Of a DNA stretch of 46,213 bases, positions 9,001 to 12,000 are shown one piece after another (the first letter of the stretch is position 1; every line of letters begins with the position of its first letter). The stretch is from a virus (Duplodnaviria; Heunggongvirae; Uroviricota; Caudoviricetes), in IMG/VR virus record IMGVR_UViG_2859821903_000001. One strand, 5' to 3'. Position numbers: made by a program.

Positions 9001-12000
9001 GACCGGATATCTATCCGAAAGATTAACAGAACACCTTCAATTTTTAACCACAGAACGATGAGGCTAACCGTGGGTAAGCATCACTGGAAAGTAGAAAAAC
9101 AGCCTGAGTGGTACGTGAAAGCTGTCAGAAAAACTATCGCGGCGTTGCCGGGGGGTACGCTGAAGCTGCTGAGTGGCTAGATGTAACAGAGAACGCTTTA
9201 TTCAACCGCCTTCGTGCAGATGGCGATCAGATTTTCCCGCTGGGATGGGCAATGATTTTACAGCGCGCGGCTGGCACTCACTACATTGCGGATGCTGTCG
9301 CACAGTCTGCTGGTGGGGTGTTTGTATCGCTTCCTGAAATTGAGGAAGTAGAGAACGCCGATATAAACCAGCGCCTGCTGGAAGTCATCGAACAGATCGG
9401 GAGTTACTCAAAGCAGATTCGTTCGGCAATCGAAGATGGGGTAGTGGAGCCACACGAGCAGACAGCAATTAATGATGAGTTGTATCTGTCAATTTCGAAG
9501 CTCCAGGAGCATGCAGCACTGGTCTACAAAATCTTTTGCGCTCCAGAAAAGAGTGACGCCCGCGAGTGTGCAGCTCCGGGCGTCGTGGCGTTTTGTGTCT
9601 GTGGAGAAACTAACGCATGAACAGTTTAACGGCAAATAACCGTTTGTCGCAACAGCTGGTGGTCAGCGTCGCTGAACACCTGTTGTTACGGCATGAATGC
9701 AGATTACCAAATCTCCTGGCTGTAAGTAACCACAGAGAACTTTACCTGACTGTGGGGGGCGAGTTGTGCAGGAACTTAACCGCTGGTTTCGTGACGGAAG
9801 AGGACTTTATGTTCATGTTATTCGTTGGGAGCCAGAAACACAGCGCGTTATCTATCTTCGCAAAGACTACCCGCATGAGTGCTTTAGTCCTTTGTGGAAA
9901 TTCAAGCGTGATTTTGTTGAGTGTGAAGGACCACCAGCACATTGATTCTGCCATTCCGGGACGTTACACTGTTCAGGCACCTTATAAAGCGGGTGCCGGG
10001 ATTGGCGTCCTGGAATTGATCAAGGCGATATATGACGCGCCAGCGTCTTTTTTATCGTCCGCATTTGCTCACATCAAAGTTATGGTGGGCTGGGCGGGGG
10101 CATCGAAAGATGCGCCGGTTTCCTTGATCACCGGTTACGCCAACCCCGTTCAGTTCACCACCAGCGAAATTGGCGTTTCCGGTGGTGGAAGTATTTCACC
10201 GATCAAGGAGGCTGCCATCATGGCTACTGTCCCAGCCCTCACTCGTCTGAATGATGAAGACTTACATAAACTCAGTTATGTAACAACTGCACTACGTGCT
10301 CTGCGCAAGGTAACTCTTTCGGATCCGCAGGCACATCAGGTTCTGGTAGAAACCCTTCTTAACTTGCAAGCTGAACGTATTCGTCTGGCGGATAAGGCTA
10401 ATTTTCATATTCACCGTCTCCTGAATATCAGCGGAGGGCATCGTCATGCTTAATCCGTTGCTCCTCAACATTTACCGTTTATTTCAGCGTAAAAAAATAT
10501 CAACACCCACAGTTGGGCAGTGGTACACCACGCCAGCAGGGCATGTTCTACGTGTCAGCCTGGTTGACCGTGAATGTCAGAAGGTGATTTGTGAACCGCT
10601 GGGCCGTAATTACCGCGTCAGTATGCCGCTTATAGCCTTTCGCTCCGGAAAAAACATGAAGCATCTCGGAGGTGCAGCATGAGTATGGAGCTGATGGTTA
10701 AAGCGATGAAAATTCGAGTGGGTAATCCATTGCGAAAACTGGTTCTGATCAAGCTGGCTGATAATGCCAGCGATCAGGGTGAGTGCTGGCCCAGCTACCA
10801 GCATATTGCTGACCAGTGCGAGATTAGCAAACGTTCTGTGATGAATCATATTGCGGCCCTTTGTGAGTCCGGGCTGGTAAAAAAAGTCACCCGGAAAGGT
10901 GAAAAAGGTAACTCAAGTAATATCTATCTCCTTCATCTGGATGGTGCAGGAGATTCACTAGGGGGTAGTGCAAATAATTCACTATCTGGTGCAGCAAATT
11001 CACCAGGTAGTGCAGGAGTTGCACTAGGGGGTAGTGCAGGAGATTCACCCAGAACCAGTCACTCTTTTGAACCAGTCAAAGAACCAGTCAATGAACCAAT
11101 AGCTGTTGGTGCATCTGCTGATGAGTCTGTGCGAGTTCGTTCAAACCGACCGGAATACTCTCCGGAGTTTGAGCAGGCATGGCTGGCATATCCCAAACGT
11201 GCTGGTGGCAATTCAAAATCTGCAGCCTTCAAAGCCTGGAAAGCCCGTTTGAATGAGGGGGTAAACCCCGAAACCATGCTGGAAGGTGTGAAACGCTATG
11301 CGGGCTGGGTATCTGCGATGGGTAACAGCGGCACACAATTTGTGAAACAGGCTGTCACGTTCTTTGGTCCGGATCGTCATTTCGAAGAATCCTGGGAAGT
11401 TCCTGCGGTATCTGCAGCCAGACGTGAGGACCCGTACTTCAAAGCCAGTTACGACAACGTGGACTACAGCCAGATCCCGGCAGGATTCAGGGGGTGATCA
11501 TGAGTCTTTTGAATGAAGTTCAGAAATTCATTGAAGCCCATCCGGGGTGTACTTCCGGAGACATTGCGGATGCTTTTGCAGGTTACTCACGGCAGCGCGT
11601 TCTGCAGTCAGCAAGCAAGTTACGTCAGAGTGGGCGTGTGGCTCACCGTTGTGAAGGGGATACACGCAGACATTTTCCGCGCCAGATAAAGATATCGCCG
11701 GAGGCGGAACGGCAACCAGTTCGTGAAACCAGACCTGTGCGCAATTTCTATGTCGGCACTAACGACCCGCGGGAGATTTTATGCCTGACCCGCCAGGCTG
11801 AAGAACTGGAGTCCAGGGGCTTATACCGTCGTGCTGCAACGGTGTGGATGGCGGCATTCCGTGAAAGCCACTCCCAGCCAGAACGAAACAATTTTCTGGC
11901 GCGTCGTGAGCAGTGTTTACGGAAAAGCAGCAAGCGCGCTGTATCGGGTGATGAGTGGTATCTGTCAGGGAATTACGTGGGGGCTTAATGAGTAATAAAT

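Follow-up and report, generated by a model that had tools for sequence, protein, structure and literature searches.

A candidate replication origin of dyad iterons and a conserved decamer block inside the initiator gene of a lambdoid Escherichia coli prophage

The 46,213-nucleotide (nt) viral record IMGVR_UViG_2859821903_000001 of IMG/VR, hereafter the window, by which we mean the whole stretch of DNA analysed, is a lambdoid Escherichia coli (E. coli) prophage with a cluster of short repeats in the middle of its replication initiator gene. Do these repeats constitute an origin of replication, as the iterons inside gene O do in phage lambda, or do they simply reflect the coding of a low-complexity linker? 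The original prediction for this locus had opted for an iteron-like array in an O-like gene. Combining the organization of the array with a comparison of its relatives, we suggest that positions 10942-11104, inside the linker-coding part of the initiator gene, are quite probably the cis-acting core of the prophage replication origin, an assignment that we infer from the anatomy of the locus and from its analogy to oriλ.

Five dyad-symmetric units of 19 base pairs (bp) lie in 10942-11050 with spacings of 24, 21, 21 and 24 bp (Table 1). Their core, GTGCA-N5-TKCAC, occurs at 10944, 10968, 10989, 11010 and 11034 and nowhere else in the 46 kilobases (kb). The pattern search returned six matches, all within the 105 bp of the array, whereas 0.37 would be expected per window, and so the repeats are not a product of chance; six matches were reached in 0 of 100 shuffles. 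Tandem Repeats Finder describes the region as period 24 with 4.7 copies and as period 12 with 2.5 copies, and no other repeat cluster was found in the 46 kb. The strings named in the original prediction are present where it had placed them (CACTAGGGGGTAGTGCA at 10956 and 11022, TGCAGGAGATTCAC at 10945 and 11035, GAACCAGTCA at 11052, 11069 and 11081, the last without a further exact copy in the 46 kb). However, the first two, which had been read as separate repeat pairs, are overlapping pieces of the five 19-bp dyads, and the GAACCAGTCA copies, which had been taken for more linker repeat, belong to a distinct element that is conserved family-wide. That the repeats encode a Gly/Ser/Ala-rich linker was correctly predicted: they code for residues 89-141, in a stretch that AlphaFold2 predicts to be disordered, with a predicted local distance difference test (pLDDT) score of 30-45 for residues 91-157. 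A scan of 10400-11700 against Rfam gave no family; a single match to mir-875, with 24.8 bits far under the gathering score of 84, was discarded as spurious and is due to the dyad repeats.

The comparison with relatives addresses whether the repeats are kept as peptide or as DNA. A first sample consisted of ten phage relatives from tblastn (Salmonella ST64B, S137 and SI8; Aeromonas AsXd-1; Vibrio D67 and 381E49-1; Stx2a_F451; Pectobacterium ZF40; Stenotrophomonas BUCT708; Klebsiella KpnBHU6), which have in common a strongly conserved N-terminal domain, a subfamily-specific repetitive linker and the peptide RTSHSFEPV, beyond which their C-terminal domains are unrelated. The main sample consisted of 80 prophage loci from a one-genome-per-species collection, of which 58 genes were left once near-duplicates had been removed. 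These loci were found by residues 1-87 only, with both repeat elements outside the search query, and their genera include Pseudomonas, Shewanella, Aeromonas, Xenorhabdus, Proteus, Providencia, Marinomonas, Marinobacter, Microbulbifer and Aliivibrio as well as a member of the Cardiobacteriaceae.

Of the 58 non-redundant genes, 46 contain two or more exact GTGMA-N5-TKCAC units, and 30 of these 46 read the units in two frames, giving peptides of either the GSAGDSP type or the VVQEIHQ type. Spacings between units in the relatives are 21 bp (54 cases), 22 bp (21), 23 bp (26) and 24 bp (48) and, therefore, the constraint is about two helical turns and not codon periodicity. Because the unit is read in two frames and its spacing departs from the codon period, the comparison shows the iterons to be under selection as DNA and not as peptide. 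Moreover, the spacer bases, which fall on first and second codon positions, are free to vary whereas the arm has an invariant T at a third codon position, and the rare codons CTA, AGT and GGA are used uniformly in the units. A position matrix built from 216 units gives TRGTGMA-N5-TKCACYA with five nearly free central bases, and the symmetry reaches the unsearched flanks, where T at -1 goes with A at +17 and R at 0 with Y at +16. Watson-Crick complementarity between the two degenerate arm positions holds in just 87 of the 216 units (odds ratio 0.44). Base pairing is therefore not kept, which favours degenerate half-sites, GTGCA or GTGAA, that are read by a dimer; a reading of the dyads as RNA hairpin or as cruciform was rejected, the variable arm positions being without covariation. 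Near-identical E. coli alleles (P0040, P0029, P0002, P0001 and P0024; protein identity of at least 88%) carry 1-9 iteron units in proteins of 242-302 amino acids (aa).

If the dyads are binding sites of the initiator, their sequence should follow that of its DNA-binding surface. Other subfamilies have dyads of their own, namely GGCAG-N3-CTGCC, CCTGTGC-N9-GCACAGG, CTATGC-N9-GCATAG, TGCCA-N5-TGGCA and GTGAY-N5-GTCAC, and between the TGTGC...GCACA and TATGC...GCATA types both arms carry matching changes. With the predicted recognition helix placed at residues 50-57, the repeat type sorts cleanly with the helix sequence: [KR]RS[VA][MI] is found with GTGMA-N5-TKCAC, RSTVK with GGCAG-N3-CTGCC, KSAVK with TGTGC-N9-GCACA, KSAVR[ND] with repeats of the TATGC and TGCCA types, and RTAMR with GTGAY-N5-GTCAC. 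This association is as expected of cognate recognition, although part of it is due to shared ancestry.

The second element, the block of decamers, lies 2-3 bp beyond the last iteron. In the window, a degenerate decamer copy, GAACCAATAG at 11093, follows the three exact ones, and the base composition of the block's top strand is A21 C16 G8 T11. Among the 80 loci, the decamer is found within one mismatch in 77, at 330-450 nt into the gene, with two or more copies in 70, and the decamers are usually spaced by 17 bp and then by 12 bp; in the E. coli alleles P0018, P0019 and P0024 there are 2 or 4 decamers, not 3. The decamers do not keep a reading frame. The first in the window is read as R-T-S-H and copies 2 and 3 as E-P-V-K and E-P-V-N; across loci the frames are (1,0,0), (0,0), (0,2) and (1,1,0), with peptides such as HPEPVTLEPV or RTSHRTSQLEPV. 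The block is read in three frames and is near-invariant over at least eight orders of Gammaproteobacteria, and no fewer than 120 IMG/VR contigs contain an exact 28-mer from it, each time at the same place in such a gene.

Codon usage in the block points in the same direction. In 41 non-redundant genes that keep the peptide, Arg is encoded by AGA (41/41, compared to 7% elsewhere in the same genes), Ser by AGT (41/41, compared to 15%) and TCT (41/41, compared to 11%), Pro by CCA (34/34, compared to 28%) and Val by GTC (40/41, compared to 32%). The mean pairwise identity at third codon positions is 0.43 in the N-terminal domain versus approximately 0.8-1.0 at most block positions. Near-invariance of the block while neighbouring synonymous sites are saturated requires direct purifying selection, and the block is, on these alignments, constrained at the nucleotide level. 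In total, the locus provides a clear case of coding sequence selected on nucleotides rather than amino acids. The block is also the minimum of guanine-plus-cytosine (GC) content in its 1.2-kb neighbourhood (0.45 versus approximately 0.6 in high-GC hosts and 0.35 versus approximately 0.48 in the others).

Two further observations concern the block. A perfect 10-nt inverted repeat of CAGAACCAGT links 11050-11059 to 10738-10747, which lies in conserved KLVL-motif codons; as a candidate distal site the inverted copy was rejected, given its absence from 58/58 non-redundant relatives, and it is therefore probably due to chance. In two prophages, L224 of Pseudomonas and L261 of Erwinia, both with the gene start at 2501, the block is in a third frame and reads HPEPVTLLNQ, and a stop codon at the block in L224 (133 aa) or just past it in L261 (118 aa) leaves the N-terminal domain and the iteron-encoded linker only. 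These short products may represent a pseudogene or an inhibitor that binds the origin.

Table 1. Features of the initiator gene and the candidate origin in the window
Feature	Position	Strand	Sequence	Remarks
Replication initiator gene	10679..11497	+		272 aa; Pfam HTH_36, PHROG 270, 97-99% identity to SfV orf39 and Stx2a_WGPS2 (Eru6)
Initiator, N-terminal winged helix	aa 1-88
Initiator, disordered linker	aa ~89-157
Initiator, helical C-terminal domain	aa ~158-230
Iteron 1	10942..10960	+	TGGTGCAGGAGATTCACTA	Fits consensus TRGTGMA-N5-TKCACYA
Iteron 2	10966..10984	+	TAGTGCAAATAATTCACTA	Pattern search and position matrix
Iteron 3	10987..11005	+	TGGTGCAGCAAATTCACCA	Pattern search and position matrix
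Iteron 4	11008..11026	+	TAGTGCAGGAGTTGCACTA	Sole perfect palindrome; pattern matches both strands
Iteron 5	11032..11050	+	TAGTGCAGGAGATTCACCC	Adjoins conserved block
Family-wide core block	11049..11104	+		Decamers, A-rich, local GC minimum; candidate unwinding/helicase-loading element

The modular design of the initiator is paralleled by that of the repeats. In tblastn searches, N-terminal matches stop at residues 136-142 and C-terminal matches start at residues 131-160. Similarly, the chimera P0072 combines a different N-terminal domain, with its own repeats of the PVPP/KST type, with a C-terminal domain nearly identical to that of the window, and its junction is at the conserved block (RTSHSFEPV). 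The chimera and the tblastn breakpoints therefore indicate that the DNA-binding domain and the repeats travel together, as a specificity pair should, and the block is, judging from where these matches end and begin, the mark of an exchange point between modules.

Combining these data, we suggest a model in which (i) dimers of the initiator's N-terminal winged helix would bind the five dyad iterons approximately two helical turns apart and build a nucleoprotein complex, (ii) this complex might, as we propose with less confidence, destabilise the adjoining low-GC, A-rich GAACCAGTCA block or direct helicase loading there, and (iii) the C-terminal domain would recruit the host helicase machinery, a step suggested by gene content. 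Host recruitment is proposed because no helicase, helicase-loader or primase gene stands next to the initiator: none was found in the early-right operon between the repressor gene and Q (8061-15942). In relatives whose initiators have other C-terminal domains, genes for a helicase or a primase(-helicase) occupy the downstream position. The specific role of the decamer block in duplex opening or helicase loading is a tentative part of this model. We are at least as hesitant about its widest extension, namely that the block could be a universal origin core of this superfamily of winged-helix phage initiators, independent of the iteron type and of the recruitment module, at which an initiator surface or a host factor opens the DNA or loads the helicase and which also serves as the joint for module exchange.

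Several points weigh against the origin model. The low-GC part of the block, approximately 45 bp with approximately 57% A+T, is only moderately AT-rich and, measured by classical standards, would be weak as an unwinding element. Shared ancestry confounds the association of helix and iteron type, and with iteron numbers varying from 1 to 9 among near-identical alleles, some of these alleles may be dead. A Pfam search with the C-terminal domain, to which we assign helicase recruitment, gave no significant match, nor did sequence and profile searches against the PDB, and the literature searched contains no binding, unwinding or replication experiments on this initiator family.

Three other explanations of the repeats have to be considered. 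If the array were a by-product of a slippage-prone, low-complexity Gly/Ser/Ala linker, its DNA would have no function of its own. The region does code for a predicted disordered linker, linker peptides are very different between subfamilies, and the variation in copy number among near-identical alleles is as slippage would give. Such a by-product would, however, not be expected to use two frames for one DNA unit in the majority of the genes, to be spaced commonly by 22 or 23 bp, to have a dyad symmetry that goes past the searched positions, to leave the spacer free at codon positions 1 and 2 next to a fixed third-position T, or to use rare codons uniformly in the iterons and, with AGA, in the block, and we regard this explanation as highly improbable. 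Alternatively, the dyads may be operators at which the initiator, or a different DNA-binding protein of the phage, exerts autoregulation, a transcriptional roadblock or copy-number control, with the origin lying elsewhere. Winged-helix dimers on dyad sites are typical of repressors, the nearest folds of the initiator are MarR, ROK and PadR, and plasmid iterons have control roles too; against this, the family is annotated as replication initiator and is followed by helicase or primase genes in relatives, neither a second repeat cluster nor another copy of the motif is present in the 46 kb, and five phased sites beside a conserved low-GC block suit an origin better. Operators in place of an origin are in our opinion quite unlikely; an autoregulatory operator role could coexist with origin function.

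The third alternative concerns the GAACCAGTCA block, which instead of an origin element could be a recombination joint, i.e. homology shared at the boundary of modules and kept through frequent exchange, or a signal at the level of the messenger RNA (mRNA). In favour of the former, chimeras join the N-terminal/iteron and C-terminal modules exactly at the block and, in favour of the latter, an RNA element would show the same codon constraint. By contrast, neither a joint nor an mRNA signal readily explains near-invariance across so many orders next to saturated synonymous sites, the presence of 2-4 decamers in direct orientation whose distance to the last iteron is constant, or the coincidence with the local GC minimum, and no Rfam family fits the block. 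We consider this alternative unlikely.

The origin model gains from comparison with lambda. As in oriλ, there are several dyad iterons of approximately 18-19 bp at distances of approximately 20-24 bp; as in lambda O, they lie mid-gene, with the DNA-binding domain on the N-terminal side and the recruitment domain on the C-terminal side; a low-GC, A-rich stretch then follows on the same strand; and the iterons are phage-type-specific whereas the flanking part is conserved. An iteron-like array in an initiator gene with the layout of lambda is what the original prediction proposed and what frame-independent units, a spacing of about two turns, dyad symmetry and an iteron type that tracks the recognition helix all support. 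Unlike in lambda, the array has five units instead of four, the conserved flank is made up of direct decamers with only approximately 57% A+T, no P-like loader gene lies downstream of the initiator as it does in the O/P pair, and the initiator has no detectable homology to O. The description as O-like therefore applies to the architecture but not to homology: the protein is an HTH_36 initiator, Phage_rep_O is absent from its Pfam matches at E<=0.01, and an hhalign comparison of the family profile with lambda O gave a probability of 1.3%, i.e. the similarity is undetectable. An HHpred analysis has assigned the N-terminus of lambda O to HTH_36 (PMC5509034). We regard the system in the window as an analogue and not a demonstrable homologue of lambda O, a remote N-terminal homology being possible according to that analysis.

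Related arrangements are known from other phages and from plasmids. Gene 18 of P22 contains four repeats of approximately 20 bp and gene 18 of phage L six repeats of 11 bp (bioRxiv 10.1101/2020.10.05.325894); there, too, distantly related origin-binding proteins each have their own distinct repeats in the coding region, but the initiator is paired with a DnaB-type helicase, gene 12, and belongs to a different protein family with different repeat sequences. Iteron plasmids (RepA, π, TrfA) share with the window winged-helix initiators, phased direct repeats beside an unwinding element and a variable iteron number. They differ in that their iterons are intergenic rather than intragenic and usually asymmetric and bound by monomers, that their initiators are Rep_3 proteins with two winged-helix domains, and that DnaA boxes are usual, as opposed to one weak 8-of-9 match here; Rep_3 is not among the Pfam matches of the window initiator. 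This match, TTTTTCACC at 10898-10906 on the minus strand, agrees in 8/9 positions with the DnaA-box consensus TTWTNCACA and lies approximately 40 bp upstream of iteron 1; as a single weak match it is given no meaning. An IHF consensus was not found in 10851-11200, and a promoter and terminator scan of 8000-12200 found nothing inside the repeat array.

Within the HTH_36 family, the domesticated protein DopC resembles the window initiator in that an N-terminal HTH_36 domain is joined to a C-terminal domain that does not resemble the one in lambda O, and its authors report no iteron-like sequences in dopC (PMC5509034), whereas the window gene has iterons; a DnaT-like C-terminus was not confirmed for the window initiator. 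SfV orf39, ST64B sb42 and the Eru6 HTH protein of Stx phages are, on the basis of 88-99% aa identity, the same gene as the window initiator and contain the same array, and published accounts treat the protein alone. An HTH_36 protein has been noted in the replication regions of non-lambdoid Stx phages (PMC8951638), Stx2a_WGPS2 being the type phage of the Eru6 replication region; the terms iteron and origin of replication do not occur in the text of either of the two Eru papers, and no origin is proposed there. In the literature searched we found no description of the repeat sequences in a phage context or of iterons in this initiator family. A 2006 review of phage replication modules may have placed SfV and ST64B among those that have an initiator gene only. 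Taken together, the locus is very probably an origin of the known lambda kind in a different, uncharacterised initiator family, to which a core conserved at the nucleotide level across a wide prophage family is a notable addition. The Stx2-converting Eru6 phages, for which no origin has been described, carry the initiator and the array, and their replication controls toxin gene dosage. Exact candidate binding sites, a predicted correspondence between helix and iterons and a conserved core make the replication of these "non-lambdoid" Stx phages open to experiment.

The assignment of the gene as an initiator is based on an HTH_36 match at residues 17-67 (E=1.8e-11, 44.1 bits with a cutoff of 25) and on a match of the whole protein to PHROG 270, replication initiation protein (E=2e-88). 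A DnaD_N match that overlaps HTH_36 remains at 24.3 bits, below the Pfam cutoff of 27; similarly, in a Foldseek search of the PDB, DnaD-N (2v79) was a weak match (E=0.02), and only generic winged-helix neighbours (DnaD-N, MarR, ROK, PadR) were found, all at E>=0.012. In the AlphaFold2 model, residues 1-88 form a confident winged helix with a pLDDT of 80-92 and residues 162-229 form a helical domain. The label primosomal protein I/DnaT carried by some GenBank homologues was not confirmed for this C-terminal domain. The protein is 99.3% identical to SfV orf39, 98.2% to that of Stx2a_WGPS2 (Eru6) and 88% to ST64B sb42, and at the DNA level the identity to numerous phages of E. coli and Shigella and to Stx2-converting phages is approximately 98%. 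The 181-bp array segment is found in 922 of 5,426 complete E. coli genomes. In the proteins P0047-P0050 and P0075, HTH_36 and RusA (PF05866) are combined in one chain that is 99-100% identical to the window initiator over 69-79% of it; these look like in-frame deletions joining the initiator gene to rusA, which would signal prophage decay.

The initiator family is also encoded by phage-sized circular records, mostly of 38-48 kb, that have been deposited as non-mobilizable plasmids (e.g. NZ_CP148393.1 and CP077666.1). In Arsenophonus nasoniae there are about ten such plasmid records, nine of 38-48 kb and one of 104 kb. These records may represent phage-plasmids or phages kept as episomes, with replication from the candidate origin. 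A small plasmid with the initiator as its sole replication gene was not found in the plasmid collection, where all circular records that carry it are of phage size (38-54 kb) or larger.

In the window, the prophage genes comprise an integrase, an S24 repressor, a CII(CP76)-like gene, an Ash-domain gene and the initiator and, further on, Q and a lambda-type portal and tail. The genes 3' of the initiator are, in order, those for a PerC-like protein, Dam, a LexA DNA-binding-domain protein, RusA, KilA-N, DUF968 and Q. The third of these (12638-12964, plus strand) encodes a 108-aa protein that consists of the LexA DNA-binding domain alone (PF01726, E=2.9e-19), without the S24 peptidase domain, and might disturb SOS control.

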